DNA of 64,000 nt from a bacterium (lineage in GTDB: Bacteria; Electryoneota; JAOADG01), in contig OY820579.1 in NCBI GenBank assembly GCA_963681965.1, positions 2,592,001-2,656,000 of the forward strand, read 5' to 3'. Positions 17,492 through 36,302 of this stretch are shown piece after piece (positions within the stretch are counted from its first letter, which is position 1; each line of letters begins with the position of its first letter). The notes under the pieces are model-generated. The model was given only the letters and a program-made list of their open reading frames with translations, ran no database searches and had not been told where the DNA came from. A program made the translations under genes and the position numbers.

Positions 17492-17836
17492 TCACACGAA
17501 GTGGAACATTGCCATCAATTTCCCAACTGTGTACATCACTGCAGCGATTCCAACAAGCTTGATCGAGTAACTCTTCCAGTCCTTGAGTGTAGCTGGCTCA
17601 TTTTCGCCGGTGAGACCATGGAATTTTGTGATATCGATGTATCGTATCGCTATAAGGGCGGGAACAATCAGCCAGAAAATGATGTCAGCGATGACGCCTG
17701 CTTCATTTTTTCCGATAAAAAAAGTGGCAGCAAGTAGAGCAACGTTCCCAAAAAAGAACCAGAGTAAACGAATGAATGCTGGAAGACAACCGGAGGGTTT
17801 GTTAGAAGAATCTGTCGAATTGGGTTGAGTTGCCAT
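17492..17836 (-). CDS. Small hypothetical membrane protein (about 3 TM)
   Basis: GGAGG RBS before ATG 17836; hydrophobic segments; IRYIDI..F.G.T....PAT...W..Y. Confidence 0.7.
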   Translation of the reverse strand: MATQPNSTDSSNKPSGCLPAFIRLLWFFFGNVALLAATFFIGKNEAGVIADIIFWLIVPALIAIRYIDITKFHGLTGENEPATLKDWKSYSIKLVGIAAVMYTVGKLMAMFHFV

Positions 17837-17876
17837 GGTGGCCTCCAAAACTGTGGAACTTTACAGATTGTTCCTG

Positions 17877-17943
17877 TTTTGAATGGCGGCCCGACCACTC
17901 TAAATCCTGCAGCACCAATGGAGGTGCTACACCCTAATCAAAA
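17877..17943 (-). ncRNA. Candidate cation-sensing riboswitch (nhaA-I / Li+ or Na+ class-like)
   Basis: Minus strand UUUUGAUUAGGG-UGUAGCACC-uccauu-GGUGCUGCA-GGAUUUAGAGU-GGUCGGGCCGCC-AUUCAAAA: outer stem UUUUGA/UCAAAA plus a 9-bp inner hairpin, 40 nt before an ATG, downstream of nhaA/mscS; class assignment is from memory of the consensus. Confidence 0.6.
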
Positions 17944-18006
17944 TGTATTAATCAAAAATAAGTAGGGCAAAGTTCCTGCGCAAGCGAATCGTCACTTTTC
18001 AACGGA

Positions 18007-19935: not shown

Positions 19936-19989
19936 TCATCCTCCGGTTCCAGAGCGATAGGCGCGCCAGATACATACTAAGTTCTACGT

Positions 19990-21357
19990 TCATTTAGTAG
20001 ATATTGAACGACGGGTGGAGCTAACAAGCATCAATACAATCCAACCAAGAATGGCAGAAACTAATGAGCCGCCGATAATGCCGATCTTAGCTGCATCCAA
20101 ATGTGAACCGGATGGGAATGCAAGATTTGCGATGAAGAGTGACATGGTAAAGCCGATGCCACCAAGCAATCCGATACCTAGAACATGCATCCATCTTACT
20201 GATGATGGCAACACTGCCAATTTTAACTTAACTGCGAGAAAAGAGAACAAGAAGATACCAATGGCTTTTCCAAACACAAGACCAAATGCGGTTCCGGTTG
20301 CGACAGTATCGCTCAGTAATGACCCAAATTGATCTCCGATTACGACTCCTGCATTGGCGAGAGCAAACACCGGCATAATCAGAAACGTGACAACCTTATG
20401 AAGTCCAGTATCCAGAAATTGTAGCGGTGATTGAACACTTTTCGTAAGCTTCATTAAGGAATAAATGGCGTTTATTTGCTTATGGTTGAGGAAAGCGTGA
20501 GCTTGGACATTACTACCATTGGAAAAATCATCGAGTGAGCGATGCCCTTCAAAAATGAACTCTTTCTGATTAACCCGAGTCGTGGCTGGAATACACATCG
20601 CCAGTATCACTCCAGCAATTGTCGAATGGATGCCTGACTGCAAGACGAGATACCAAAGGATCACTCCAAACACCAGATAAACAGGTACCGATCGTACATT
20701 ACTCCAGTTTAAGATTGCGAGTATAACCACAGTAATACCAGCCAGTCCCAAAAACATCAGCGATATCTCATTCGTATAAAACACCGCTATCACCAGGACA
20801 GCCCCAATGTCATCGATAATTGCCAATGCCGTCAACATCACCTTCAATCCGAGTGGCACTTTGTTTCCCAAGATTGCGAGCATTCCAATCGCGAACGCAA
20901 TGTCGGTTGCCATCGGAATCCCCCAACCTCGAACGCCTTCCGTTCCGGAAGTCATCAGCCAGTAAATAGTAGCCGGAAACAACATACCTCCCAACGCAGC
21001 GAAGATTGGGAGTAACGCTTTCTTCGGTGATGCCAGTTCACCGACCAGCATCTCGCGTTTAATTTCTAAACCCACTACTAAAAAGAATATTGCCATTAAC
21101 CCATCGTTGATCAGATGCATAACCGAAGTCGATACCTGATATTGTCCGATTCCAACATTCAACGAAGAATGAAAAATGTTCTGGTAGAGGGTAGCCCAAA
21201 TTGAGTTCGCCCAAATCACAGCAATGACTGCACTGATGAATAACAGGATGCCTGATGCTGATTCCAATTTGAAGAATTCTTGGAACGGAGTCAGTATTCT
21301 GTTTTTAAGTAGATGGTTCACTTTGTGTGTCTCTCGATTCATTCTTTTCTCTTTCAA
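19990..21357 (-). CDS. nhaA: Na+/H+ antiporter NhaA
   Basis: INDGLMAIFF..VGLEIKRE, GWGIPMATDIAF, LAIIDD, GIGFTMSLFI. Confidence 0.96.
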   Translation of the reverse strand: MKEKRMNRETHKVNHLLKNRILTPFQEFFKLESASGILLFISAVIAVIWANSIWATLYQNIFHSSLNVGIGQYQVSTSVMHLINDGLMAIFFLVVGLEIKREMLVGELASPKKALLPIFAALGGMLFPATIYWLMTSGTEGVRGWGIPMATDIAFAIGMLAILGNKVPLGLKVMLTALAIIDDIGAVLVIAVFYTNEISLMFLGLAGITVVILAILNWSNVRSVPVYLVFGVILWYLVLQSGIHSTIAGVILAMCIPATTRVNQKEFIFEGHRSLDDFSNGSNVQAHAFLNHKQINAIYSLMKLTKSVQSPLQFLDTGLHKVVTFLIMPVFALANAGVVIGDQFGSLLSDTVATGTAFGLVFGKAIGIFLFSFLAVKLKLAVLPSSVRWMHVLGIGLLGGIGFTMSLFIANLAFPSGSHLDAAKIGIIGGSLVSAILGWIVLMLVSSTRRSISTK

Positions 21358-22724
21358 GTAATGGTCTCAAGCTTGGACTCTGACGGTACAGTTGTTTTGG
21401 ATCTGATTTCGAGTAATGCATCGTAGATGGGTAGTGATCCAAGCAGCGTGGCAGTCAGGTAAGAAATCAGACACGCAATCGATAACGGAAAAAGTTGTGA
21501 GTAGTTACCTGTCATCTCTAGTATAAGTACGATACCAGTTAGAGGTGCGCGAACACTTGCAACAAAAACCGCAGCCATACCGATTACGGCGAATGCGGCC
21601 GGGGTCGGTGCCAATGCGGGAAACATCAAGTGATCGAACTGCCCAACAATTGCGCCCAGGAGTGCACCAATCAGTAACATGGGTGCAAAGATTCCGCCGG
21701 GAACCCCTGCAGCAAAAGAAAGACTCGTCAACAGGATTTTACCTACTAAAAGGAGTAGTAGAAAGATGATCGTACCATCTCTCGGGATCACTCCTTTCAA
21801 TATCATCTCTGCAGTTGCATGTCCACCACCGGTAATTTCTGGCAGAATCCATACCGAGGCTGCAATTACTACTGCGACAACTCCACCTCTTACCCATGGA
21901 TTCTTGAGATACAAATCGGCATAACGAATGCTGTTCAGTAACGACTTGTTAAAAACAACTCCAATCAGCCCTGCCGCTACTCCCAAGATGGCAAATAGTG
22001 GAAGTGCCTCTAATGACGGTACCGGAAATGAGGTCACATGAAATGAAGGGATTTGACCGACGGAAATCTGAGTGACGAGTGCAGCAGTAAGCGAGGAGAT
22101 GAATGCGGTGCCATACGTCATCGGTGACAAACCGCGACGTAACTCCTCAATGACAAAAATGAACCCAGCAAGTGGTGCATTAAACGCACCTGCCAACCCG
22201 GCTCCAGCACCACAAGCGATCAGGTGACTACGTTCACTGGCTGTACTGCGAAGGAATTTCGATACAACCATTCCAACCGCAGAACCCATTTGAACTGTTG
22301 GACCTTCACGACCAAGTGAAAATCCTGCACCGATTGCGAGTACACCTCCAATGAACTTAACAAGCAAGACTCGAATCCAACGAATTTCAATTTTACGCTC
22401 GAGAACAAGCTTGACATGGGGAATTCCACTACCAGCAGCTTCTGGTGCAAACTTATTCGTCATCCAACTGACTAATGCTCCTATTCCAATGATCACAATA
22501 GAGAACGGTAGCACCCACCAATATGAACTTTCCGAGATCGATGCCATTATCGATTTACGTATCACTTCTGCAAACCAGAGGAAGTATTGAAATGTAAGAG
22601 CAATTGAACCAGTAGCTAATCCGATGGTTATAGCACGTACAAACTGATACCGTCGACTCATCTGAATCAGGCGCACCATTCGCTCTCGATTACTTGTTCC
22701 ACTAGCAGTGGCGCTTACACTCAC
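21354..22724 (-). CDS. clcA: H+/Cl- exchange transporter, ClC family
   Basis: GSGIP, GREGPTVQMG, AFNAPLAG..F..EE, GGIFAP, PIY. Confidence 0.93.
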   Translation of the reverse strand: MSVSATASGTSNRERMVRLIQMSRRYQFVRAITIGLATGSIALTFQYFLWFAEVIRKSIMASISESSYWWVLPFSIVIIGIGALVSWMTNKFAPEAAGSGIPHVKLVLERKIEIRWIRVLLVKFIGGVLAIGAGFSLGREGPTVQMGSAVGMVVSKFLRSTASERSHLIACGAGAGLAGAFNAPLAGFIFVIEELRRGLSPMTYGTAFISSLTAALVTQISVGQIPSFHVTSFPVPSLEALPLFAILGVAAGLIGVVFNKSLLNSIRYADLYLKNPWVRGGVVAVVIAASVWILPEITGGGHATAEMILKGVIPRDGTIIFLLLLLVGKILLTSLSFAAGVPGGIFAPMLLIGALLGAIVGQFDHLMFPALAPTPAAFAVIGMAAVFVASVRAPLTGIVLILEMTGNYSQLFPLSIACLISYLTATLLGSLPIYDALLEIRSKTTVPSESKLETIT

Positions 22725-22821
22725 GATAGAAATCCCTTATCTCTTCAAGATCGGCTGACTCAGTTGTCTGGCAAACCGGTGAATGGTACTTTATTCATAC
22801 ATCCCATTAAAGACGAGCGGT

Positions 22822-23997
22822 ATGGATCTTCAGAACATCATGTTAAATGTTTTAAGTACACCGGAAGTACAGTATATCCTTCTGCTATTCGCTTTGTTCG
22901 TGTTTCCGAAGTGGTTGCAAAGATTCCGTATTCCCGGTGCCATAACCAGCCTTTTGTTGGGCATGGTTGCCAGCATGTTTCTCCACCTCTTTGATCAAGA
23001 TGCAACAATTCAATTACTTGCTACTTTCGGGATCGTCTCAATGTTCCTCTTTGCCGGACTTGAGATGGATTTTGTTCTGTTGCGCAAACACTTCTCAGTT
23101 CTGATACAACATATTGCAATTCAATTGGTTACTCTACTACTCATTGCATGGATAGCATCGTTCGTTTTTGATTTATCCAGCCGAGCTGCCATCGTATTGG
23201 CAATGGCGCTGCTTACTCCTTCCGCAGGTTTCATACTTGATTCCTTACTCACGTTGAAGGTGTCTAATCTTGAGAAAGAATGGATCAAATCGAAAGTACT
23301 GGCTACTGAGCTAGTCACTTTAAGTGTTTTGTTCTTTGTACTCCAGTCAACCAGTGCAGTAAAAATGTCAGTCTCGCTGGGAGTGTTGATTGCTCTAGTC
23401 GTCATTCTTCCGATTCTGTTCAAACTCTTTGCCTCCTGGATCATTCCATTTGCCCCTAAATCCGAATTTGCGTTCCTACTGATGGTTGCAGTAGTAAGTT
23501 CGCTGGTTACCCGCAGACTCGGAGTATACTACCTGGTCGGGGCCTTTATCGTCGGAATCACAGCGCAGAATTTTCAAAAGCATTTGCCAGCCATTGCATC
23601 GGAAAAAATGCTCCACGCTGTCGAAGTTTTTGCTTCGTTCTTTATCCCTTTTTACTTTTTTAACGCCGGAATGCACCTACACAAAGAAGATTTCAATTGG
23701 TATGTGCTTCTCGCTGGGATCTCTTTTGCATTTGTGTTAATTCCAACAAGGATCTTTCAGGTCGCCTTACATCGACGGTTTGCCCTTCACGAAACGCTAA
23801 TTTCCAGTAGACGTATCGGTATCGCATTGCTTCCATCACTTGTGTTCACCATCGTACTAGCCGAGATTCTCCGCGAACGGTTTGAAGCACCCCCCATCAT
23901 CTTTGGGGGGCTGATAGTTTACACTATTGTAACTACAGTACTTCCCAGTATTCTTTTGAGATCGGAACCACCTCAAGGGTTATCGCATAAAGTCTAG
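22822..23997 (+). CDS. Cation:proton antiporter (CPA2 family)
   Basis: FGIVSMFLFAGLE, many TM helices, LG.Y.LVGAFIVG, FFIPFYFF.AG. Confidence 0.85.
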   Translation: MDLQNIMLNVLSTPEVQYILLLFALFVFPKWLQRFRIPGAITSLLLGMVASMFLHLFDQDATIQLLATFGIVSMFLFAGLEMDFVLLRKHFSVLIQHIAIQLVTLLLIAWIASFVFDLSSRAAIVLAMALLTPSAGFILDSLLTLKVSNLEKEWIKSKVLATELVTLSVLFFVLQSTSAVKMSVSLGVLIALVVILPILFKLFASWIIPFAPKSEFAFLLMVAVVSSLVTRRLGVYYLVGAFIVGITAQNFQKHLPAIASEKMLHAVEVFASFFIPFYFFNAGMHLHKEDFNWYVLLAGISFAFVLIPTRIFQVALHRRFALHETLISSRRIGIALLPSLVFTIVLAEILRERFEAPPIIFGGLIVYTIVTTVLPSILLRSEPPQGLSHKV

Positions 23998-24026
23998 GCA
24001 CTTTACATGATCATAATCTAACCAAA

Positions 24027-24632
24027 CTATTCAAAGGTCCGCTTACTTATCACGTTCGATGTTAGCCTTGAAAGGATTGTACGTCTAAACCATGTTACTA
24101 AGTTTGTTGCTAATGACGTGTCAGAAAGAAGATGCAAATCGCCCGTGTTTTTAGCTGACAGATCTATCGTAACCCGACAATCGGAGGATGGGTTTAAGTC
24201 ATACATCGCCGTGACGATAGATCCCTCAATTGATGTTCCAACTATTAGTATATTACTAACTCTTTTCCGGATGAGTCTATCTGGTAGATTTCTGAACTGC
24301 CCAAACCACTTGTTTTTTCCACTACCTATTAAGGTTAATTGTGGCTTCAGTTGATTGATGGCCTTGCGAATTCCTTTGAGGGGTGAACCTTTAACGATAT
24401 GGATCGTTATCCCGAAAGATGGAGTGGGAAGTTGCTCTCGTATGATCTTCATGATTTGCATTTGAAACCAGCGAAGTTGTTCACGTTCCCGGTCTTTTTC
24501 TGGGATTACGTGTACTACATGGAGAGGAACATGACGCACCTGAGAAATTCGATACGCCTCTCTCAGAACAGGAAAATCAATCGACTTGAGTTGAATGGCA
24601 ACTACGATCCCTGATTCTTCTACGAAAATGTT
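24027..24632 (-). pseudogene. Degenerate universal stress protein
   Basis: Frame open upstream of the ORF call (GIVVAIQ...REAYRISQVRHVPLHVVHVIP...IVKGSP..GI...LIGSG) but no canonical start before an in-frame TGA; second USP domain looks eroded. Confidence 0.5.
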
Positions 24633-24706
24633 ACACCTTCACTTCCTGCAGCAAATCATACTTCAGCAAACTTGTCTAATCATTCGTTCGACGATTTGTC
24701 TAATAC

Positions 24707-25600
24707 CTATTGATGCGAATCGCTATTAACTCGAACCACCAGCAAGGAACACTTGGCCCGACGAATAAGTCCTTCCGACACACTGCCGAGAGTTAGTCGT
24801 TTCAAACCCGATTTACCATGAGATCCAATAACGAGCAGCTCAGCCCGAGATGCAATCACTGCATGGAGAATTGCATCGATTGGATTTCCTTCCTTGAGAA
24901 TCGATTTTGCGGAAAATTCTTCTGCGACTATCCGAAGCTTTTCTTTTGATTCATGAAGAAATGTGGAATGCATATCGCTGGTAGTAAATGGTGAAACCAT
25001 TGGATCAGGAGCGAAAAATAGAAATGGCGATGTCTCAACAACATGAATGATGATTAACTGATTCGATCGGTAACTGGCTGCAACACTTGCTCGATGAACT
25101 GCAGGCAGGCTTAGATCGGAAAAATCGGTTGCAGCCAGCACGCATCCTTGTTTACGCTTTCGAGCTATTAACACTGGACAGGTTGCGTGTCTTACAACAC
25201 GTTCGGCGATCCCAGAAAAAATCTTTGGTCGTGTCTTCTTTGTTCCCGCACCTATTACAATCATTGAGGCATCAACTTCGTCGGCGATTTGAAGAATACC
25301 GGCATCGGCAGAGCCCTGCACGACATGGAGTGTGACTGGTAACCTGACATCAGGATAGGTGTCAGTGATCAAGTACTCTAAACGAGATTTAGCAGCTGCG
25401 ATCTGTTCTTCAGCCACAAACGGTGAATCACCGATTAGAGATAGTCCAGTCATGGGTAAAAATCTGGTGTCAGGAATAACGTGAACAACATGAGCTGGTA
25501 TACTCTCGCGAAGCGCGAGGTCGATGCCATGACGGAAAGCCACCATACTATCTCTGTCGTTTTTTACTGCGATTAGTACGGGACCGCGGTGCTCATTCAT
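24707..25600 (-). CDS. Tandem-domain universal stress protein
   Basis: AERVVRHATCPVLIAR, VLAATDFS, G.P...I...LLVIGSHG.SG.....LGSVSE.LIR.A.CS.LVV. Confidence 0.92.
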   Translation of the reverse strand: MNEHRGPVLIAVKNDRDSMVAFRHGIDLALRESIPAHVVHVIPDTRFLPMTGLSLIGDSPFVAEEQIAAAKSRLEYLITDTYPDVRLPVTLHVVQGSADAGILQIADEVDASMIVIGAGTKKTRPKIFSGIAERVVRHATCPVLIARKRKQGCVLAATDFSDLSLPAVHRASVAASYRSNQLIIIHVVETSPFLFFAPDPMVSPFTTSDMHSTFLHESKEKLRIVAEEFSAKSILKEGNPIDAILHAVIASRAELLVIGSHGKSGLKRLTLGSVSEGLIRRAKCSLLVVRVNSDSHQ

Positions 25601-25661
25601 TTCATACTCCTGCTTGATGTAGTGATTTCGATTGGCGAGCTAGTGTGTCCAAATCATTGTT

Positions 25662-25970
25662 CTAGCCATCCTCAGGAGCGTCACGTCCAGATATGATCTG
25701 CTCTTTCCTGCGTCGGCGTTGCTTCTCAAGTTTTGTAACAACTTCACGCGCAGCATCGGAAGCATCGCTCGATTTAGCGGAGGCACGGTAAAATCCGCTC
25801 TGGGAATGGATACGGCATAAAACCTCTTTCTCAGGGCCTTCCTCAGTAACATCCCACTCGACCGTCTGGATGTTATGGAACAGCTTTTCAAACCGCTCAG
25901 TAAGCTCTTCAATAAGAGGTTTAAGACCAGCAAACGAATCATGGATTCGAATGGAGAACGTCAAAGTCAT
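25662..25970 (-). CDS. HPF/RaiA-like ribosome-associated protein
   Basis: About 100 aa; L...IEE...R.EK....I...A...D...A.....KLEKQ.RR.K. Confidence 0.65.
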   Translation of the reverse strand: MTLTFSIRIHDSFAGLKPLIEELTERFEKLFHNIQTVEWDVTEEGPEKEVLCRIHSQSGFYRASAKSSDASDAAREVVTKLEKQRRRRKEQIISGRDAPEDG

Positions 25971-26172
25971 GGTGTATTCCTTTCAATCAGTACCGCAACA
26001 CGACACAAACTTGAATATGCTTCATATATGAATAAGATACAGAAAAGACATTACTTTGTCAATTGCGCGATGGATGGCTAGTAAAATCGATGCTTGTTCT
26101 GGATTAGTACGAGTGTGTTTGCGTTTGAAGTTAACAAATTGTACCTTATTCATAATTGAAAGGAATTCAATA

Positions 26173-26814
26173 ATGAACGGAAGAAGAGACCGACGCAAAC
26201 AGGAAACCAGAGCCGCATTTCTAAAAGCTGGGTTAGAGATGTTTCATGAGAAGGGGATCGTAGCTACCAGAATCGAAGATATCACCGATCTAGCGGATGT
26301 CGCACGCGGCGGTTTCTACAATTACTTCGAATCTAAGGACGACTTGGTCTACGCATTGCTCATTGAGGGGATCGAACAGCTCCGGTCACTTCTGGCAGCC
26401 GGAGTAAATGTAAAGTACTCAACTCGAAAACGGATCGAAGTCGTCGTTCAAGTTCACGAAAACTTTTTTACGACTCACCCCGAATATGCTCTGCTCTTTC
26501 ATCAAGCTAGAGGGTTACTTGAAACGAAATCTTTCGATGTGACACTGCTAAGGAAAGGATTTAAACAATACTTGAACATTGTTGGAGATTCCCTTTTTCC
26601 ACCAAAAGCGCTTTCACAAATGAGTGAAGAGGCGAAACTCGGGTTTGCGCGAATGGTCGCAGGTACAATCGCGGGCTATCGATCCTATAGCCTTGCGACT
26701 GGGTTGACCCCCGACTATAAAGATGTAACGAACATACTTTTAAACGGTTTGACCATTCCCGGCGAAAAAATTGAATCTCAGATCGATAATTGTCAGGTTA
26801 CCGAGCAAACCTGA
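26173..26814 (+). CDS. TetR/AcrR family regulator
   Basis: RRDRRKQETR..FL.AG..MF.EKG...T.IEDIT..ADVARG.FYNYF.SK.DL. Confidence 0.93.
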   Translation: MNGRRDRRKQETRAAFLKAGLEMFHEKGIVATRIEDITDLADVARGGFYNYFESKDDLVYALLIEGIEQLRSLLAAGVNVKYSTRKRIEVVVQVHENFFTTHPEYALLFHQARGLLETKSFDVTLLRKGFKQYLNIVGDSLFPPKALSQMSEEAKLGFARMVAGTIAGYRSYSLATGLTPDYKDVTNILLNGLTIPGEKIESQIDNCQVTEQT

Positions 26815-26820
26815 GAAAGG

Positions 26821-27981
26821 ATGGTGAACATGGATACGACCGAAGCATTCAAAACAAAACCGAAGATTGCAGTTCTTGGAGCTGGACACGGTGGTTTGGC
26901 AATGGCAGGTCACCTAGCCATCAAAGGGTTTGAAATCAAGCTGTTCAATCGAAGTGAGGAGCGACTCTGGGGTGTTAAATCAACTGGTGGCATTGAAGTA
27001 GAAGGAGAAATAGAAGGGTTTGGCAAGATCGATGTCGTATCGACAAACATCAGAGAAGTAATTGACGATGCCGACTTGATTATGGTAGTAGCTCCCGCCA
27101 CCGCTCACCGTTACATGGCAGAACAATGTGCCCCATACTTACACGATGGCCAAATCGTCATACTTCATCCGGGCCGAACGTTTGGTGCATTGGAATTCCG
27201 TCAGGTGTTAAGTCAGCACAACGTCACCGCCGATGCTGCAATCGCCGAAACTCAGACATTTATCTATGCTTCACGTGCAATCGGACCCGGTCATGTGAAG
27301 ATATTTGGAATCAAGAATTCAATACCAGTCGCCTCAATCCGTGCCCATCTCATCCCCAGCGTCCTCAAACAATTACGAGTTGTTTATCCGCAGTTCGTTC
27401 CAGGCGACAATATCTTCAAGACCAGTTTCGATAACATTGGTGCCGTGTTTCACCCAACGCTCTGTGTATTGAACGCGGGATGGATTGAAGATGATGCAGA
27501 GTTCCAATTCTACATCAATGGTGTAACGGAATCAGTTGCAAAAGTACTCGAGCAAGTTGACATCGAGCGCGTAAATGTTGCCGAGGCGCTTGGTATTCGG
27601 GCTTTAACCGCCCGTCAGTGGCTCTACATGGCTTACAACACTGCTGGTGATGATCTCCACACTGCGATGAAAAAGAACCCGGGGTACCGAGGAATCATGG
27701 CACCTACTACTCTTCGAGTTCGATACATCAGCGAAGATGTTCCTTCGAGCTTAGTCCCAATCGCATCAGTAGGGAAGAAGTTTGGTGTTGAGACTCCAAC
27801 CATCAACACAATCATTCAACTCGCATCAGTATTAAACCAAACAGACTACAAAGCGATTGGTAGAACAGTTGAGAGGTTGGGGATCGCGGACATGACCTTA
27901 AAGGAACTTCGGTTATTGGCGATCGGCGAACCGCATCAGCCAATCGCTAACCTTAGTAAATCAGAGGAGGGCAAATCATGA
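26821..27981 (+). CDS. NAD(P)-dependent opine (octopine/nopaline) dehydrogenase family
   Basis: IAVLGAGHGG.A.A, LHPGRTFGALEF, ETQT..YA.R, N.GAVFHP...LNAG.IE, FY..GVT, RYISEDVP..LVP. Confidence 0.92.
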   Translation: MVNMDTTEAFKTKPKIAVLGAGHGGLAMAGHLAIKGFEIKLFNRSEERLWGVKSTGGIEVEGEIEGFGKIDVVSTNIREVIDDADLIMVVAPATAHRYMAEQCAPYLHDGQIVILHPGRTFGALEFRQVLSQHNVTADAAIAETQTFIYASRAIGPGHVKIFGIKNSIPVASIRAHLIPSVLKQLRVVYPQFVPGDNIFKTSFDNIGAVFHPTLCVLNAGWIEDDAEFQFYINGVTESVAKVLEQVDIERVNVAEALGIRALTARQWLYMAYNTAGDDLHTAMKKNPGYRGIMAPTTLRVRYISEDVPSSLVPIASVGKKFGVETPTINTIIQLASVLNQTDYKAIGRTVERLGIADMTLKELRLLAIGEPHQPIANLSKSEEGKS

Positions 27982-29651
27982 AAAAAAGCATTTTAGGCGC
28001 TGCCCTCGGTAATTGTGTACATGTTGCAGGTTTGCATCACTTTTTGATGATTGCGGAATCCGAAGGTTATCAGACCAGTTCGCTGGGACCAGCAGTTTCC
28101 ATCGAGCGGTTGGTAAAAGCAATTCAGGATGTTCACCCAACCATCATCGCAGTCAGTTACCGTTTAACTCCCGAAGTCGCGGCGGAACTGTTCGAAACTT
28201 TACGTTCACGGCTAGAGAATCTAGGAATGCAATCGACACGAATGGTATTCGGTGGAACCGTACCGGTGTGCCTAATTGCTCAAAAGTCCGGGTTATTCGA
28301 ACGGGTTTTTGATGGCCATGATTCAGTAGAAAATATCAAAGCGTTTCTGCGTGGTGAAGTTGACAGGAGCGCAATTCAAAAACCAATGACAGATTTAATC
28401 GGTCGTATCGAGCAGAAATACCCGTATCCACTTTTGCGACACCACTACGGACGTCCGACCCTTGAAGAAACCATTGAAGGGGTCAAAACGATTGCTGAGG
28501 CCGGAGTACTGGACGTGATTTCGCTCGGCACCGATCAGAATGCACAGGAACATTTCTTTCGTTCGGAAGAGATGGATCATGCGCAGGATGGTGCGGGTGG
28601 CGTTCCGGTTCGGACATCCGAACAATTGAGAGAAATTTTCGTCGCTTCCCGATGTGGTAACTTTCCACTGATTCGTTGTTACAGCGGGACTCGAGATCTG
28701 ATTCCTTGGGCAGAGATGAGTGTGGATACAATCCATAACGCATGGGGTGCAATTCCGCTCTGCTGGTACTGTGTGATCGATGGCCGTTCTCAATTATCGC
28801 TCTACGATTCGATTCGCGAAAAGCAAGCAGCGATGCATTGGTACGCTGAGCGAAATATCCCGGTAGAAGTGAATGAATCACACCAGTGGAGTCTACGCGA
28901 TGCGCACGATTCGTTGGGGGTCGCAATGGCCTTTCTTGCGGCCTACAATGCGAAGAAAGCAGGCGTCAAGAACTATGTATCGCAATTTATGTTCAACACT
29001 CCACCCGGAACTTCGCCGGTCAATGATCTTGCCAAAATGCTCGCGAAAAAGGAGCTGATTGAGTCGCTTCACGATGATACATTTACTTCATATCGAGAAG
29101 TTCGAGCTGGTATTGCGCACTTTTCATCCAACCCATTTACAGCATCTGGTCAACTCGCTGCCTCGGCTGTGATCAGTCTAGCTTTGAAACCCCACATCCT
29201 GCACGTTGTTGGACATAGCGAAGGGCATCACGCCACAACCGCATCTGAACTGATTCAGAGTTGCAACATAATTCATGGTGTGTTGCAAAACTGTTTGCAT
29301 GGTTTGCCTGATATGACTTTTGACAAAGATGTCATCGCGAGACAGTATGAGTTAATATCAGAAGCGAAAACTTTATTATCAGCTATTAAGATGTTTGGGG
29401 CAGCAGTCAGTGATGATCCTTGGAGCGATGCGTGGGTGTTATCGAATGCTATCAAGAATGGTATTCTCGATGCGCCGCATTTTCGCGGGAATCCCGCACT
29501 CTGTGGTAAAATCATAACTAGGTGTATCAATGGCGGATGGTATGCCATCGACGAGAGTTCTGGAAATCCCATAACCGAGCAAAATAGACTAAAGTTAGTG
29601 CTTGATTCTACACTTGTGTTAAGTGCTAATCAGAATAATTCATCAATCTAA
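27978..29651 (+). CDS. Cobalamin-binding protein: N-terminal B12 Rossmann domain plus large putative TIM-barrel (mutase-like)
   Basis: GNCVHVAG (variant of DxHxxG), SYRL and FGG motifs of a base-off/His-on B12 domain; no CxxxCxxC motif. Confidence 0.8.
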   Translation: MKKSILGAALGNCVHVAGLHHFLMIAESEGYQTSSLGPAVSIERLVKAIQDVHPTIIAVSYRLTPEVAAELFETLRSRLENLGMQSTRMVFGGTVPVCLIAQKSGLFERVFDGHDSVENIKAFLRGEVDRSAIQKPMTDLIGRIEQKYPYPLLRHHYGRPTLEETIEGVKTIAEAGVLDVISLGTDQNAQEHFFRSEEMDHAQDGAGGVPVRTSEQLREIFVASRCGNFPLIRCYSGTRDLIPWAEMSVDTIHNAWGAIPLCWYCVIDGRSQLSLYDSIREKQAAMHWYAERNIPVEVNESHQWSLRDAHDSLGVAMAFLAAYNAKKAGVKNYVSQFMFNTPPGTSPVNDLAKMLAKKELIESLHDDTFTSYREVRAGIAHFSSNPFTASGQLAASAVISLALKPHILHVVGHSEGHHATTASELIQSCNIIHGVLQNCLHGLPDMTFDKDVIARQYELISEAKTLLSAIKMFGAAVSDDPWSDAWVLSNAIKNGILDAPHFRGNPALCGKIITRCINGGWYAIDESSGNPITEQNRLKLVLDSTLVLSANQNNSSI

Positions 29652-29666
29652 GTCAGGAGGACAATC

Positions 29667-31013
29667 GTGGCAGGCATCGCAGGAACATCCAAACCAAATG
29701 CCAACGACCTTGTCGGTAAAATGTTGCAACTGATGCATCATCGCGGTAGTGCTGGTAAGGAAGTAGTCGACGTGCAAAACTGTACGTTCGGAATCTGTTG
29801 GCCAAAATCGCAAATAAAGTTGGCACAAAAGTTACTGGACACCCATGTGCTTAGTGATGAGACTGCAAACGGGCACTCTGTTTCCGCAAACATTGTCGAC
29901 GGAAGGTTGATTCTAAAGAGAGACAAATTAGGTGTCGTTCCTTTATATTATGCCCATACTTCAGATGGATCACTTTGTTTTGCCTCTGAAGCGAAAGCGC
30001 TCTTTCCTTTCGCAAGAAACATAACTGAGTTACTTCCAGGAACGGAAACAGATGGCGATAAGGTCACTGAGTACTTCAGATTGACTCAATCACCGATTTT
30101 ACTGCACTCCGACATAGAGATCGCCCGTCTACTACGTACACGATTGGATCTGTCAGTCGTGCGGCGTATTCGCGGGTATGCAATGGGGTCATGGCTATCG
30201 GGTGGATTAGATTCCAGTGTGCTGGCGGCCTTGGCTAAGCAACATCTTCCCATATTGCATACCTTTGCTGCTGGAACCAAAGAAGCGTCCGATCTTTTGT
30301 TTGCCCGTGAGATGGCAAACCATATCGGGTCCATTCACCATGAACTAATTGTCGATCTAGATCAGATGACAAGTATTCTACCGAAAGTGATCTATCATCT
30401 AGAATCTTTCGATGCACTATTGGTGCGTTCCAGCATAATGAATTTTCTCGTTGCTCAACTTGCGTCCGAATATGTCGAAGAGGTGTTCTCTGGTGAAGGA
30501 GGTGACGAACTCTTTGGTGGATACGAGTATTTAAAAGAACTCCCACTTGATCAATTGCCAGCTGAACTTATCGACATCACTAGTCGTTTACATAATACTG
30601 CACTTCAACGAGTGGATCGCTCTGCATCAGCTCATGGAACCATCGCTCATACCGCTTTTCTTGATCCTGATGTAGTCGATTTTGCACTTCGAATTCCACC
30701 GGAGTTAAAAATACGCGATGGAATTGAAAAATGGATTCTGAGAGAGTCCATGAAAGACCTGCTACCTGAAAGCATTTACCGACGAAAGAAAGCGAAGTTC
30801 TGGGAAGGAGCAGGTGTCTCAGACATGATTGCAATGCATGTTGATTCAAACATCTCGAATCAAGATTTTCAACGGGAACGTACCTTACCAAATGGATGGT
30901 TACTCAACAGCAAAGAAGAGCTGATGTACTACCGGATTTTTGTTAGTCACTTTGGAGAACTGGAAGATCTTAATTGGATGGGAAGGACCAAAGGGGTTAA
31001 AGCAGATGTTTAA
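29667..31013 (+). CDS. Asparagine-synthetase-like ATP-dependent amide/lactam ligase with degenerate glutaminase domain
   Basis: MAGIAG instead of MCGI; HRG, RDKLGVVPLYY, FASEAK, LSGGLDSS, SGEGGDELFGGY, EKWILRE. Confidence 0.88.
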   Translation: MAGIAGTSKPNANDLVGKMLQLMHHRGSAGKEVVDVQNCTFGICWPKSQIKLAQKLLDTHVLSDETANGHSVSANIVDGRLILKRDKLGVVPLYYAHTSDGSLCFASEAKALFPFARNITELLPGTETDGDKVTEYFRLTQSPILLHSDIEIARLLRTRLDLSVVRRIRGYAMGSWLSGGLDSSVLAALAKQHLPILHTFAAGTKEASDLLFAREMANHIGSIHHELIVDLDQMTSILPKVIYHLESFDALLVRSSIMNFLVAQLASEYVEEVFSGEGGDELFGGYEYLKELPLDQLPAELIDITSRLHNTALQRVDRSASAHGTIAHTAFLDPDVVDFALRIPPELKIRDGIEKWILRESMKDLLPESIYRRKKAKFWEGAGVSDMIAMHVDSNISNQDFQRERTLPNGWLLNSKEELMYYRIFVSHFGELEDLNWMGRTKGVKADV

Positions 31014-31032
31014 CCATTTGGTGGAGTAAGCG

Positions 31033-31623
31033 ATGAATTTTCTGAGCCACGTAATCCATGATTTTCTTGTGCTCTTTGCAATGGTGAATGCTGTGGGAAA
31101 TCTTCCCATATTTGCGTTCCACACATCCGGAATGACCTCTTTCGAGCGGAACAAGGTGTTCCGGTTGGCAGTGATAACCGCCGGATCAATTGTGATTTCA
31201 TTTGCTCTCTTTGGTGACTGGATGTTAAGGAATGTCTTTGAAGTAAGCACCGCATCATTCAAGATTGCAGGTGGAATTCTTGTCTTCGCTGTTGCTGCAA
31301 AAGGAGTTATATCGCAAACAAGTAATGTTCCGCAGGATTCTGGTAAGTTCGAAAACGTAGCAGTGTTTCCATTGGCTTTTCCGTTTCTGGCAGGTCCCGG
31401 CACGATTGTCACGACCATACTTTTGTTTCAGACTGGTGGCTCACTTGTAACTGTTGGTGTTGCCGTACTGGTTTATTTATCAGTGATCCCTTTACTTCGC
31501 TTAGCACCATTGGTCGAAAAAGCAATCGGACAAGTTGGTGTAATGATTGTAGCTCGAATACTCTACATTTTCATCTGCGCGAAAGCAGTGAGTTTTGTGA
31601 TTACCGGAATCAAAGCAAGCTGA
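31033..31623 (+). CDS. MarC family membrane protein
   Basis: LFAMVNAVGNLPIF...G...L..F.VS..SFKIAGGILVF...AVFPLAFP.LAGPGTI.T. Confidence 0.92.
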   Translation: MNFLSHVIHDFLVLFAMVNAVGNLPIFAFHTSGMTSFERNKVFRLAVITAGSIVISFALFGDWMLRNVFEVSTASFKIAGGILVFAVAAKGVISQTSNVPQDSGKFENVAVFPLAFPFLAGPGTIVTTILLFQTGGSLVTVGVAVLVYLSVIPLLRLAPLVEKAIGQVGVMIVARILYIFICAKAVSFVITGIKAS

Positions 31624-31904
31624 CCTTGTTCTTTTACTGTTATGCACAACTGATAAACTGATGTACAAATCAAAAGTAGCAGGAAAGAACTCCGCATCCT
31701 TTGAATTGCTGATGGCAAAGTGAATTCTGAAAATGAAACTCTAGTTTAGTTCGTATCACATAGTTAGTAGGTGCGGTTTTGAACTTTTCGAGTGACAGCG
31801 ATCGGTCAATATCGTTTTAATTAAGAAATCCAGCGGCTTTTTATAATAAATGTCAATTGACTAAGTCGTATGATAAATACATTTATTGCACGGAAAGCGA
31901 AATC

Positions 31905-32011
31905 ATGAATAAGAAGCCATCGATGAATGAGAAAGTAAGATCGCTAATGGAATCATTAGCAAGCACTGAAGGCATGGTACGCGAGACAGCTAGGATATCG
32001 TTAGTAGCTCT
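31905..32011 (+). pseudogene. 5' fragment of a HEAT-repeat-like protein cut by IS3
   Basis: MNKKPSMNEKVRSLMESLASTEGMVRETARISLVAL then IS sequence. Confidence 0.5.
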
Positions 32012-32045
32012 TGATCTGCCCCCATTATTTGTACCAGTGTCTATG

Positions 32046-32921
32046 TCACACTGGTCTCATTCCTGCGTAGCGTAGCGGAGCAGGAATGAGTGGTAACTCT
32101 GTTTCCGGTGCCGGCGGCAGATAGCCCAAAGAGCTGTGCGGTCGAATCGTATTGTAATGGTGCCGCCATTGTTCGATAATCACCTTTGCTTCCAATATGG
32201 TATCAAAGATTTCACCCTTCAGCAACAGTTTCAACCGACAGTTAAAACTTTCGATGTATCCGTTTTCCCACGGGCTGCCAGGCGTAATAAACAAGGGTTG
32301 CACATCAACCCGGGGCAGCCACGCTAGTACCTCATTCGCCGTAAACTCAGGGCCATTGTCACTACGAACATGAATCGGTGTACCTCGTACTACAAACAGT
32401 TCTTCCAGTACGCAAAGAACATCATCCGCCTTGATCTTCCGGGCTACCAGGATCGCAAGGCATTCCCGGGTGTATTCGTCCATGATCGCAAAGATCTTGA
32501 ACGAACGACCATTCGACGTATGCCACGTGACAAAGTCGAAGCTCCAGACATGATCCGGATGTTCCGGACGTAGACGGATGCAGGAACCATCATTCAGCCA
32601 CAGTCTTCGACGCTTCTTCTGCTTCTTCGGGACCTTCAGTCCGGACTGTCGCCAGATCCGTTCCACCCGTTTGTGGTTTACCCGCCAGCCGATGTTACGG
32701 ATCATCGCCGTTACGATCCGGTAGCCATACCCGCCATACTGGCAAGCCAGAAATACCACCAGCGAGACCAACGGGCCTTCGTCGGCACGACGAAGCGGTG
32801 CATACCGGTGACTCGTTCGTGGTTCGCAAAGAACCGTACAGACCCGTCGTTCCGAGACCCGATCAATGCCCAGCGAATGGCGAACAGTAAGCGCAGTCTC
32901 GCGACGCTTCGCCGGGCACAC
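32046..32921 (-). CDS. IS3 transposase OrfB (DDE integrase core)
   Basis: YGYR, WSFDF, DEYTRE, SDNGPEF, PGSPWENGYIESFN, RPHSSLGY. Confidence 0.95.
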   Translation of the reverse strand: MCPAKRRETALTVRHSLGIDRVSERRVCTVLCEPRTSHRYAPLRRADEGPLVSLVVFLACQYGGYGYRIVTAMIRNIGWRVNHKRVERIWRQSGLKVPKKQKKRRRLWLNDGSCIRLRPEHPDHVWSFDFVTWHTSNGRSFKIFAIMDEYTRECLAILVARKIKADDVLCVLEELFVVRGTPIHVRSDNGPEFTANEVLAWLPRVDVQPLFITPGSPWENGYIESFNCRLKLLLKGEIFDTILEAKVIIEQWRHHYNTIRPHSSLGYLPPAPETELPLIPAPLRYAGMRPV

Positions 32922-33196
32922 TATTTTCCCTTGAGAGCCTCCTGCAGGATCTCTTTGTCCAAGGTCAGATCAGATACGACCTTCCGAAGACGGCCATTCT
33001 CGCGTTCCAGTTCCTTCAAACGCTTCGCCTGATCCAGCTTCAAACCACCGTATTCCTTGCGCCAGTGGTAGTAAGTATGTTCCTGGATGCCCAACTTCCG
33101 GCAAACTTCACGGACGCTCATCCCCTTCCCAATCTCAACTTCCGCTTCACGAAGCATCGGGATAATCTGCTCCGCAGTTCGCTTCACTCCACGCAT
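32921..33196 (-). CDS. IS3 transposase OrfA
   Basis: EQII.MLREAE...VCRKLGI...TYY.WRKEYGG...AKRLKELE.EN.RL. Confidence 0.95.
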   Translation of the reverse strand: MRGVKRTAEQIIPMLREAEVEIGKGMSVREVCRKLGIQEHTYYHWRKEYGGLKLDQAKRLKELERENGRLRKVVSDLTLDKEILQEALKGK

Positions 33197-33902: not shown

Positions 33903-35033
33903 GTGATCCGCTTCCTCCATACGAGTGACTGGCAGTTGGGGATGACCCGCCATTTTCTGTCCGAAGGTGCTCAGGAAAGATATACCCAAGCACGCTTTGA
34001 CGCTATTCGGACTATGGGGCGAATAGCTAAAAGTGAGGATTGCCAGTTTATGCTGGTATGTGGCGATGCATTCGAGTCGAACCAGGTGGACAGAAAAACG
34101 GTAGCCCGGGCTATGGAAGCAATTAAGGAAGTTTCAGTTCCTGTTTTCATCTTGCCGGGTAATCACGACCCGTTGAATGCTGCTTCTGTTTATCGTTCGA
34201 GCACCTTCATTGAGCGTAAGCCAGCAAATGTACAGATCATCGAGACCGCCTCACCAATCAAAATATCAGAAGATGTGGAGCTGGTGGGTGCACCTTGGAT
34301 GTCAAAGCGTCCGGTATTCAATCCCATCGAGGACGCGATCAACGCCCTTGAACCTACCAACAAAATCATTCGAATTTGCTTGGGTCACGGAGCAGTAGAC
34401 ACGCTATCACCAGATAGTGAATCCACAGCAATCATTTCGGTTACCATGCTCGAACGAGCCATCGGTGATGGGAAGATACACTTTGTAGCACTTGGCGACA
34501 GACACTCTTTGACTAACGTCGGCAGTGGCAACCGTATCTGGTATTCCGGGACACCCGAGTCTACAGATTTTCGTGAGATACAATCTGGTTACGCCAACAT
34601 AGTTGAGATAGACAACCATAGTGTGACCGCTAAGAGCGTCCAGATCGGTCAATGGCGGTTCATCGAACATGAACGGGTTGATCTTAATACAGCAGAGGAT
34701 GTAGAATCGATACGGAAGAAATTGGAGGAAATCGAGAAAAAGGAGCGCACTGTCGTTCGGTTGAACCTCGTCGGCTCGCTTTCGTTAACCGCAAATACAA
34801 TACTTCAGAATCACATATTCGCTGCAAAGGATATATTCGGTGCCTTCGATGTAAGCGATGAAACACTTTTAGTGCTACCGGACGACGCAGACTTTGCAAA
34901 CCTTGGATTTTCGGGCTTTGCTGATGAAACCGTAAAACGTCTTCGAAGCACGATTGCAGAAGGTGGAGATGAAAGTATTGTGGCGCGCGATGCCCTGATG
35001 CTTATGCTTAGGTTGGCAAGGGGGGCAGCATGA
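33903..35033 (+). CDS. SbcD/Mre11-like metallophosphoesterase nuclease
   Basis: FLHTSDWQLG, CGDAFE, LPGNHD, GHG, ALGDRH, YSGTPE. Confidence 0.92.
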   Translation: MIRFLHTSDWQLGMTRHFLSEGAQERYTQARFDAIRTMGRIAKSEDCQFMLVCGDAFESNQVDRKTVARAMEAIKEVSVPVFILPGNHDPLNAASVYRSSTFIERKPANVQIIETASPIKISEDVELVGAPWMSKRPVFNPIEDAINALEPTNKIIRICLGHGAVDTLSPDSESTAIISVTMLERAIGDGKIHFVALGDRHSLTNVGSGNRIWYSGTPESTDFREIQSGYANIVEIDNHSVTAKSVQIGQWRFIEHERVDLNTAEDVESIRKKLEEIEKKERTVVRLNLVGSLSLTANTILQNHIFAAKDIFGAFDVSDETLLVLPDDADFANLGFSGFADETVKRLRSTIAEGGDESIVARDALMLMLRLARGAA

Positions 35034-36302
35034 AATTCGTTCGCCTTCGAGTCTCCAATTACCGAGGTATAGATGCCGCTGAAGTAATGTTCGGACCGAA
35101 TGGTATTACTCTGATTCAGGGACCTAATGAAACTGGTAAAACCAGTCTGGGCGAGTCCATTGGGATTCTCTTCGAATATTTAGATTCAAGCAAGCATCGA
35201 AATATCGAAGCTATCAAACCGGTTCATCGAGATGAAGGTCCAGAGATTGAGTTACAGGCAGAGAGCGGCCCTTACAGCTTCACATTTACAAAGCGGTTCC
35301 TCAAACGACCAGAAACCAAACTCACTGTTACTAGCCCAAAACCAGAAAACTACACTGGACGCGAAGCGCACGAGCGCGCAGAATCTATCCTTCGCGAAAC
35401 CCTCGACATTGATCTCTGGAGAGCATTGACCATTCAACAGGGTGATGCAATCCATCAACCAGACCTCACGAAGCAGACATCTCTTTCGGTCGCACTCGAT
35501 AAAGCAGCCGGTGGGAATCCCGTCGATCCTCGGGATGAAGGACTATTCGACATAGTACATGAGGAGTACCTCCGATACTTTACTGAAAAGGGGAGCGAAC
35601 GGAAGGAACTAGCGGATTCCCGCAAGGCGCAGAAAGATTGCGAAGCAGAAGTTGTCCGTATCGTGCAGGCAATCCGATCCCTCGACCAAGACATTGACCG
35701 TGCGGCAGCTCTTCAGCGAGAATTGGATCAGCTAAAAAAACAAGAAGATGAATTTACAAAGGTGGTAGCAGCCCATTCAATTTCTCTTGAGGAAATTGCT
35801 GCGTTAGAGATTGCCCTTTCGACAGCTCGTTTGAAGCTTGAATCAGCACAAAAATCCGAGCAAGTCGCTCGCGGTGATAAGGATGTACGGCAAGGTCTCA
35901 TTAATTCGGTTTCAATTGGTGCAAAGGAGCATGGCGAGATCGTTGATTCCTGTGCTATGTCACTCACAGCATTGAACCAAGCCGATGGCAAACTCAAAGC
36001 AGCACAAAAGGCTTTCGACGAAAGTGACATTGCAAGAAAGGCTGCCGTTTGACTCATTAAGCGGTGGCACCAAAGAACAGCTTTCACTGATCTTCCGATC
36101 CGCCTGCTCGATGATCGTTGCCAACGATGGAGGAATGCCGCTCATTCTTGACGATGCTTTGGGTTATACTGACCCAGAACGGCTGCGTCTCATGGGTGCA
36201 GTTCTTGCTAAAGCAGCCAAGGAATGCCAGATTGTTATATTCACTTGCGTTCCAGACCGGTATAGCTATGTTGGAGAGGCTAAGGTCGTCTCAATAAGTT
36301 GA
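35030..36302 (+). pseudogene. SbcC/Rad50-like ATPase split by internal deletion/frameshift near 36040-36050
   Basis: N-part has Walker A GPNETGKTS and coiled coil and stops at 36052; C-part in another frame has LSGGTKEQL, ILDDALG and FTC. Confidence 0.85.

Follow-up and report, generated by a model that had tools for sequence, protein, structure and literature searches.

Which product could an opine dehydrogenase, a B12-dependent protein and an asparagine-synthetase-like ligase make when they are encoded side by side? The question is raised by positions 26173–31623 of a 64,000-nucleotide stretch (GenBank assembly GCA_963681965.1, contig OY820579.1, positions 2,592,001 to 2,656,000) from a bacterium of the lineage Electryoneota; this whole stretch is called the window below. 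Five co-directional open reading frames (ORFs) lie there on the + strand; the second and third overlap by 4 nt, and the remaining gaps are, in order, 6, 15 and 19 nt. A preliminary description made from the letters of the DNA had treated them as one operon and had assigned each gene to a family. The coordinates and gaps were reproduced exactly, all five assignments stand in Pfam and NCBIfam, and the five genes are confirmed as one real operon. For its three enzymes, the chemistry with most support is the amidation of a rearranged opine-type acid. The best-supported physiology is a role of the product as a stress solute, which we favour tentatively. The genes are as follows (aa, amino acids):

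26173–26814, + strand: TetR-family regulator, 213 aa, PF00440
26821–27981, + strand: opine dehydrogenase of the CENDH type, 386 aa, PF02317
27978–29651, + strand: single-chain B12 enzyme, 557 aa, fold match to glutamate mutase E
29667–31013, + strand: AsnB-like ATP-dependent amide ligase, 448 aa, PF00733
31033–31623, + strand: MarC/NAAT-family small membrane transporter, 196 aa, PF01914 and TIGR00427, an accessory part of the module

The three enzymes are inherited together

In a scan of 185,579 species genomes, the pattern matched at 571 places, and a relative is encoded at 522 of them. Neighbourhood counts refer to the best 80 of these 522; as these loci are the nearest to the query, the share with a ligase may be lower family-wide. 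In 78 of the 80 loci the dehydrogenase gene immediately precedes the B12 gene (tblastn), the two misses being contigs that start at the B12 gene, and an AsnB-like gene lies downstream in 65 (tblastn). When 908 neighbouring ORFs were clustered, no widely shared gene was found apart from the three enzymes. The loci are labelled Bacteroidota, Ignavibacteriota, 'Deltaproteobacteria', Aminicenantes, Gemmatimonadota, 'Clostridia' and Alphaproteobacteria, and the carriers comprise hundreds of bacteria, most of them uncultured. The trio is inherited together across at least six phylum-level labels, and its arrangement is far beyond chance. The preliminary description had proposed that the three enzymes belong together while allowing that their homologues might rarely co-occur; the gene-neighbourhood search shows that co-occurrence is common.

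The module was also traced in another class, where matches at E 1e-20 or better came from 67 of 339 genomes, about 35 of these reaching orthologue level. Among 14 extended orthologue loci of that class, the dehydrogenase is adjacent in 14 and the ligase in 3. About 30 genomes of the same class have only a paralogue of ~630 aa with 31–38% identity. This paralogue family (620–650 aa, 31–38% identical to the barrel of the B12 protein) was inspected at 16 loci (L145 and L146–L160). At L145 (3371–7382), an opine dehydrogenase and a 621-aa paralogue with a canonical DxHxxG motif are accompanied by a D-Ala-D-Ala-ligase-like ATP-grasp protein. The latter occupies the position of the ligase, suggesting that an amide-forming third step recurs with non-homologous enzymes. 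No dehydrogenase was found at the other 15 paralogue loci. Several of these 15 lie beside an amidohydrolase pair and HslVU, and one lies beside a sodium:dicarboxylate (SDF) symporter, which gives no clear hint to function.

A new family of proteins dependent on B12 was put forward as a prediction by Zhang, Rodionov, Gelfand and Gladyshev (BMC Genomics 2009, PMC2667541). As described there, its members have an N-terminal distant B12-binding domain, always adjoin a pfam02317 octopine/nopaline dehydrogenase, have an asparagine synthase or D-Ala-D-Ala ligase nearby, and occur in 11 genomes of four phyla, with neither an assignment to the glutamate mutase fold nor a function given. The window module is like this family in its B12 domain, its dehydrogenase and its asparagine synthase neighbour. 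In a full-text literature search, which left most subscription journals outside its reach, only this paper was relevant, and no assigned function was found. The earlier statement that the combination has no known pathway holds in that no characterised pathway was found, but the gene combination itself was in print in 2009 (PMC2667541).

The B12 protein resembles glutamate mutase in its modelled fold

The 557-aa protein consists of an N-terminal cobalamin-binding Rossmann domain (residues 1 to ~130) and a TIM barrel (~136–540). Pfam B12-binding matched residues 4–102 with 28.3 bits, below the cut-off of 32.1, and no other family was matched. A homologue search matched 7,831 of 8,000 scored candidates, the best 120 of which are 63–70% identical and 540–575 aa long. 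Their names, where given, are generic ('cobalamin B12-binding domain-containing protein', 'methylmalonyl-CoA mutase cobalamin-binding subunit', 'methionine synthase' or 'hypothetical protein'). We aligned the window protein with 25 sequences hand-picked from these 120 (alignment A1). The cofactor loop of the window protein reads C13-V-H15-V-A-G18, and C13, H15, G18 and G92-G93 are invariant in 26 of 26 sequences. His-on cobalamin binding is plausible, because the His and Gly of the DxHxxG motif are retained.

The preliminary description had also suggested structure prediction, which was carried out for this protein and revealed a glutamate-mutase-E-like barrel joined to a cobalamin domain. The AlphaFold model has a predicted local distance difference test score (pLDDT) of 85.4 and a predicted TM-score (pTM) of 0.76. 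Its best Foldseek matches are the glutamate mutase E chains 6h9e_B and 1cb7_B (E 3e-15). Ornithine and lysine aminomutases rank after them, as does methylmalonyl-CoA mutase; for the N-terminal domain, the matches are MutS and corrinoid proteins. A second structural aligner superimposed model residues 136–540 on 1cb7_B with Z 31.4 and a root mean square deviation of 3.1 Å over 367 residues. Lysine 5,6-aminomutase (Z 28.2), ornithine aminomutase (Z 25.4) and methylmalonyl-CoA mutase (Z 20.5) came next. The N-terminal 128 residues reached Z 15 to corrinoid-binding domains, and the small Rossmann cobalamin domain matched 1cb7_A with a target-normalised TM-score of 0.76.

At the level of sequence profiles, PF06368 (Met_asp_mut_E) gave no match to the 557-aa protein at E 0.01. 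In five carrier genomes it found only one true, unrelated GlmE and no member of the B12 family, and PDB sequence and profile searches with the B12 protein matched its B12 domain but never GlmE. One look-alike cluster of the Atlas carries PF06368 on 18% of its members. For a residue-level comparison, GlmE was aligned from 13 loci (alignment A2), in 12 of which a 415–418-aa gene, probably methylaspartase, comes next. The two profiles are colinear over 348 columns, with an hhalign probability of only 1.2%. In this 1.2%-probability alignment, R65, R99 and R148 of GlmE, the invariant arginine claw for the substrate glutamate, and its invariant catalytic E170 face H156, Q190, Y235 and G257 of the B12 protein, whose R154 and R233 lie two residues off the GlmE Arg positions; the invariant E329 of GlmE faces the invariant E415. 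We take this GlmE Glu to be a contact of the adenosyl ribose. The arginine claw is not kept in the same 1.2%-probability alignment, so the substrate would be one other than free glutamate.

In known B12 aminomutases, the Lys that binds pyridoxal 5'-phosphate (PLP) is located in the Rossmann B12 domain. Residues 1–130 of the present family contain no invariant Lys at all; the sole invariant Lys residues, K353 and K357, are both in the barrel. Because the B12 domain lacks such a Lys, an aminomutase role is disfavoured, and a B12-dependent aminomutase of the lysine 5,6- or ornithine 4,5-type was rejected as a candidate, though its fold is similar (Z 25–28). We therefore read the 557-aa protein, from its modelled fold, as a putative adenosylcobalamin carbon-skeleton mutase of the glutamate-mutase lineage with another substrate, not as a PLP aminomutase.

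The reference for this lineage is GlmS/GlmE (MutS/MutE, EC 5.4.99.1) of Clostridium cochlearium (1cb7, 6h9e), which has the same barrel and the same small Rossmann B12 domain. The window enzyme differs from it in being one polypeptide with the B12 domain N-terminal, in its CxHxxG loop instead of DxHxxG, and in having no adjacent GlmL gene. Its family is always paired with an opine dehydrogenase, not with methylaspartase.

The dehydrogenase is predicted to work reductively

The dehydrogenase matches PF02317 (Octopine_DH) with 156.8 bits against a cut-off of 30, and Rossmann families match residues 15–117. Its similarity to CENDH, the N-(1-D-carboxyethyl)-L-norvaline dehydrogenase of Arthrobacter sp. 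(1bg6), is full-length (E 5.9e-73, residues 16–364). In an alignment of the window protein with 23 others, taken as every third 360–400-aa ORF of a 75-member cluster (alignment A3), G20, G22 and G25 are invariant. H211, R301 and D306, whose counterparts in 1bg6 are also His, Arg and Asp, are likewise invariant in 24 of 24 sequences; the catalytic residues of 1bg6 are presumably H202, R292 and D297. The enzyme is predicted to condense an amino acid and a 2-oxo acid with NAD(P)H.

NAD-dependent enzymes typically have an Asp where the second Rossmann strand ends. The window enzyme differs from CENDH in having N43-R44 in place of this Asp, and also in the 4-nt overlap of its gene with the B12 gene. 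The exchange suggests NADPH and hence a reductive, biosynthetic direction, and the dehydrogenase is probably NADPH-preferring.

Operon-linked ligases retain a glutaminase in a sister clade

The ligase matches PF00733 (Asn_synthase) with 205.1 bits (cut-off 21), and only a remnant of GATase_7 is found, at residues 79–113. Its GTG start yields the N-terminus M-A-G-I-A-G, the same as the N-termini of its homologues. The glutaminase Cys is absent, in agreement with the preliminary description, and the segments RLSIID, NGEIYN and SDTEV are deleted. The PP-loop LSGGLDSS and the SGEGxDE motif are present, and SGGLDSS and SGEGxDE are invariant in 32 of 32 aligned ligases. Its nearest solved relative is Escherichia coli AsnB (1ct9, E 3.6e-46), compared with E 2.9e-19 for beta-lactam synthetase (1jgt) and E 1.2e-19 for CarA (1q15). 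It falls below both NCBIfam AsnB cut-offs (NF006949, 303.9 vs 499; TIGR01536, 212.9 vs 267.1), and the AsnB stretch TTIRAS has become LLVRSS, with two Thr replaced by Leu. The window ligase thus shares with AsnB the adenylating PP-loop synthetase domain, being AsnB-like across residues 82–427, and differs from it in the missing Cys and a glutaminase domain cut by three deletions.

The operon-linked ligases occur in three forms. The first comprises nine proteins of ~493 aa that start with MCGI and keep HRGPD, RLSIID, NGEIYN and SDTEV-type motifs. The second comprises two proteins of 487 aa (L130, 7767–9230; L138, 1358–2821) with the Cys-less start MAGIAG and a full-length glutaminase domain (GATase_7 E 4e-21, HRGPDG kept). 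All others, including that of the window, start with M-[A/S/G]-G-I and have the three deletions. We built a quick maximum-likelihood tree of 37 rows, namely the window ligase, 22 ORFs of the short class (every second one, 440–456 aa), nine Cys forms, three ligases of the other class and two outgroup AsnB paralogues on long branches. All 35 operon-linked ligases are set apart from the two AsnB paralogues (support 85). They fall into a Cys clade and a Cys-less clade, which are sisters (100), and the Cys-less clade divides in turn into the full-length pair and the short forms (98). The module hence offers a natural decay series of the AsnB glutaminase: a full domain with the Cys, a full domain without it, and a Cys-less domain with deletions. 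At one locus with a Gemmatimonadota label (L075, 9810–12897), a Cys-bearing 491-aa ligase and a Cys-less 447-aa ligase stand in tandem between the mutase and MarC.

Because orthologues of the sister clade keep MCGI and the glutaminase motifs in the same gene position, the ligase would perform amidation rather than lactam closure. The simplest reading of these sequences is that the ancestral ligase was a glutamine-dependent amidotransferase acting on a carboxylate of the pathway and that the window form would use free ammonia. A precedent exists in AsnO, the N-acetylglutaminylglutamine amide amidotransferase (TIGR03104), an AsnB-type enzyme that finishes a neutral osmolyte; the window ligase itself is far below the TIGR03104 cut-off (110.8 vs 570.1).

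A proposed route to an amidated opine-type solute

In the route that we propose, the dehydrogenase, using NADPH, would join an amino acid and a 2-oxo acid to an N-(carboxyalkyl) amino acid. The adenosylcobalamin enzyme would catalyse a radical 1,2 shift of the carbon skeleton, as glutamate mutase does, either on this product or on a precursor, so that the two steps could come in either order. The ligase would then adenylate one carboxylate and turn it into a carboxamide, with free ammonia in the Cys-less form and with glutamine in the Cys-bearing orthologues, and MarC might move this product, or a precursor of it, through the membrane. The result would be a partly neutralised derivative of an amino acid, small and highly soluble. 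It would serve most likely as a compatible solute or counter-ion in salt or ionic stress, since mechanosensitive channels, chloride channels and cation transporters are recurrent neighbours of the module.

That the operon makes an amidated opine-type solute for osmotic or ionic stress is quite possible, if short of probable. A wider proposal is that the 557-aa protein defines a new class of carbon-skeleton mutases that use adenosylcobalamin, have a Cys-His cofactor loop and act on an opine or another acidic amino-acid derivative. With the dehydrogenase and the amide ligase it would make a new family of compatible solutes, used by many anaerobic Bacteroidota, Ignavibacteriota and others against salt or ionic stress; in this full extent we regard the proposal as rather doubtful. 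New here are the operon-linked ligases that keep the glutaminase Cys (MCGI) and point to amidation, the absence of an invariant Lys from the B12 domain, and the recurring ion-stress neighbours.

To our knowledge, only a handful of adenosylcobalamin mutase reactions are known. The present B12 family is large, its identity across phyla is unusually high (60–70%), and solving the mutase reaction would add new B12 chemistry. We know of no established physiological role for CENDH itself; a solved pathway would give bacterial CENDH-type opine dehydrogenases such a role, and could reveal how many uncultured anaerobes cope with salt.

Ion- and osmotic-stress genes beside the module

Within 9 kb upstream of the operon lies an island of ion- and osmotic-stress genes:

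17492–25600, no strand: flanking ion/osmotic-stress island, comprising the features below
17492–17848, − strand: 118-aa hydrophobic ORF behind the riboswitch, no Pfam family
17881–17934, − strand: nhaA-I riboswitch, RF03057, 53.7 bits vs a gathering score of 37
18007–19935, − strand: MscS-type channel
19990–21357, − strand: NhaA
21354–22724, − strand: CLC channel
22783–23997, + strand: cation/proton exchanger
24707–25600, − strand: tandem Usp

The riboswitch precedes the 118-aa ORF and not the NhaA gene, which is 2 kb upstream on the same strand. Similar company recurs among the 80 loci; the window represents an independent lineage. The recurrent neighbour clusters are MscS (16 loci), a 741-aa AA_permease protein (12), CLC (9), DUF389 (9) and CitMHS (7); the 741-aa protein is an amino-acid/cation-type permease, and a two-component pair recurs as well. 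At least one of MscS, CLC, the 741-aa permease, CitMHS and DUF389 is present in 30 of the 80 loci. A compatible solute had been one of several products considered in the preliminary description, and this idea gains contextual support from the recurring neighbours and the window island.

Several observations weigh against the proposed route and its link to stress. On the side of the mutase, the Pfam B12 score lies below its cut-off, and cobalamin binding is a prediction; the cobalamin loop carries a Cys in place of the Asp shared by all classical mutases; and the residue-level comparison with GlmE is the profile alignment of 1.2% probability. As to the ligase, its absence from many loci may mark it as a tailoring step and not a core one. 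Loss of the Cys also occurred in beta-lactam synthetase, and the tandem at L075 may mean that the two forms have different reactions. The stress link comes from gene neighbourhood alone, and the 30 loci include many from related Bacteroidota or Ignavibacteriota, which are hence not independent, while 50 of the 80 have no such ion-type neighbour. Loci of the other class adjoin genes for TldD/PmbA peptidases and housekeeping genes: at 8 of the 14 (L132, L134–L136 and L139–L142), the mutase gene is followed, in the same orientation, by two genes of the TldD/PmbA peptidase family. A riboswitch for an osmotic signal was found beside the module in 0 of 69 locus scans at Rfam gathering scores, which returned only tRNAs. 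These scans covered 19 of the 80 loci (those with long upstream gaps), 20 other-class loci (1.5-kb flanks), 14 loci re-fetched at 10.5 kb and 16 distant-paralogue loci; the 14 overlap the 20, so fewer than 69 loci are distinct.

Alternative products and directions

Opine dehydrogenases make opine-type metallophores in other bacteria, and the same trio could likewise lead to a product that is not an osmolyte: a branched or D-configured amino-acid unit for the envelope or a small peptide, an opine-type metal chelator, or a signal. The 50 loci without an ion-type neighbour and the TldD/PmbA pairs of the other class are compatible with such a product. So is the pairing of the sister family with a D-Ala-D-Ala-ligase-like enzyme, seen at L145 and mentioned also in PMC2667541. 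Yet the commonest recurrent neighbours are ion channels and transporters, and the recurrent clusters of the 80 loci contain no conserved nicotianamine-synthase-like gene, metal importer, peptide synthetase or cell-wall gene. We regard a product of this kind as unlikely, though by no means negligible.

The operon might instead be catabolic. The B12 enzyme would rearrange an imported N-(carboxyalkyl) or branched acidic amino acid, which the dehydrogenase would cleave oxidatively, with MarC as importer and TetR as sensor. Opine dehydrogenases are reversible, glutamate mutase is catabolic in clostridia, and a substrate-sensing TetR with a small transporter would suit an inducible utilisation operon. 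Breakdown, however, has no place for an ATP-consuming amide ligase that appears to be glutamine-dependent in nine orthologues, and the dehydrogenase lacks the Asp typical of NAD-dependent enzymes. TetR and MarC, on which the inducible scheme draws, are found at 0 and 15 of the 80 other loci, respectively, and no conserved lyase, aminotransferase or uptake ABC system is among the recurrent neighbours of these loci. Catabolism is therefore distinctly unlikely.

The preliminary description had itself sketched a route of reductive condensation, a B12-dependent shift of the amino linkage from alpha to beta, and closure of the resulting beta-amino acid to a lactam by an enzyme like beta-lactam synthetase. 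The window ligase, beta-lactam synthetase and CarA are indeed all AsnB paralogues without the catalytic Cys, the two lactam-forming enzymes are detectable relatives, and the Cys-bearing and Cys-less pair at L075 would suit two reactions. The window ligase is, in contrast, much nearer to E. coli AsnB, and its sister clade consists of nine Cys-bearing orthologues in the same operon position, which have a working-looking glutaminase domain with MCGI and all the motifs. The amino shift also fails to fit a B12 domain without invariant Lys and a barrel whose best fold match is the carbon-skeleton enzyme glutamate mutase. This earlier route now appears very improbable, in its shift as in its closure, and amidation remains the chemistry that we prefer.

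That there is no joint pathway, the ligase simply making asparagine from aspartate and ammonia amid unrelated neighbours, would accord with AsnB as best solved relative and with the retained PP-loop and conserved Glu of SGEGxDE, but it hardly deserves any weight given the gene order conserved across phyla, the scores under both AsnB cut-offs, the change of TTIRAS to LLVRSS, and a separate full-length AsnB (649 aa, MCGI start) in the genome, because of which plain asparagine synthesis is not expected of the ligase.

Regulation and origin of the cassette

Two further features adjoin the operon:

26149–26177, no strand: inverted repeat, candidate operator, with 12-nt arms and a 5-nt spacer, 92% complementary
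32046–33196, − strand: insertion sequence (IS) element, an integrase-core transposase (rve, rve_3) with a small overlapping upstream ORF

TetR matches PF00440 (TetR_N) with 45.9 bits (cut-off 24, residues 17–61), and no NCBIfam equivalog reached its cut-off. Its ORF offers an alternative TTG start at 26056 besides the ATG at 26173. The latter is supported as the true start, because similarity to a homologue in a genome of the same genus (G001) begins there and this homologue has upstream stop codons. The inverted repeat spans the ribosome-binding site and this ATG, and may be an autoregulatory TetR operator. Scans for promoters and terminators in 25600–32100 gave counts no higher than in shuffled sequence.

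MarC is matched by PF01914 (124.8 bits, cut-off 23.9) and by TIGR00427 (124.8 bits, cut-off 99.2). It occupies the same operon position in 15 of the 80 related loci, and a TetR homologue was found in none of them. The earlier inclusion of TetR and MarC in the pathway is thus not upheld by conservation, and TetR is peculiar to this genome's version of the operon.

The B12 protein is absent from all 40 of 40 relatives of the same phylum, in which one match (E 8.7e-4) covers a B12 domain only; its closest homologues, ~70% identical, come from other phyla. The TetR homologue in G001 is 57% identical, and the cassette does not follow it there. The IS element lies directly downstream of the operon and has a G+C content of 0.52–0.53 versus ~0.44–0.49 in the operon and ~0.44 in the DNA on its sides. 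Because the B12 protein is missing from same-phylum relatives, the nearest homologues are in other phyla, an IS element adjoins and G001 has the TetR without the cassette, the four-gene cassette was probably acquired horizontally and then came under a local TetR repressor. DNA-level synteny with three relatives was too diverged to set the borders of an insertion.

Cofactor supply and other genes

The genome contains one cobalamin riboswitch, a PduO-type adenosyltransferase and seven other B12-domain matches; CobA and CobS were not found in it. As the adenosyltransferase and the riboswitch are present and CobA and CobS are missing, the organism probably imports corrinoids and can form the adenosyl form. 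An orphan gene of the MutL/GlmL family (652 aa, PF13941 E 6e-126) is located at L143, 7383–9341, − strand (G000:C1, ~97.4–99.3 kb), with no mutase adjoining. It was considered as a reactivase of the mutase, but a link to the operon was rejected because the family is also found in 8 of 20 relatives without the operon.

Elsewhere in the window, subunits I and II of a cytochrome bd oxidase are encoded at 11742–14116 (+ strand), suggesting that the host is not a strict anaerobe, unlike most other carriers of the module. At 33903–36052 (+ strand), overlapping genes with a Metallophos domain and an AAA_23 domain resemble an SbcCD-type nuclease.

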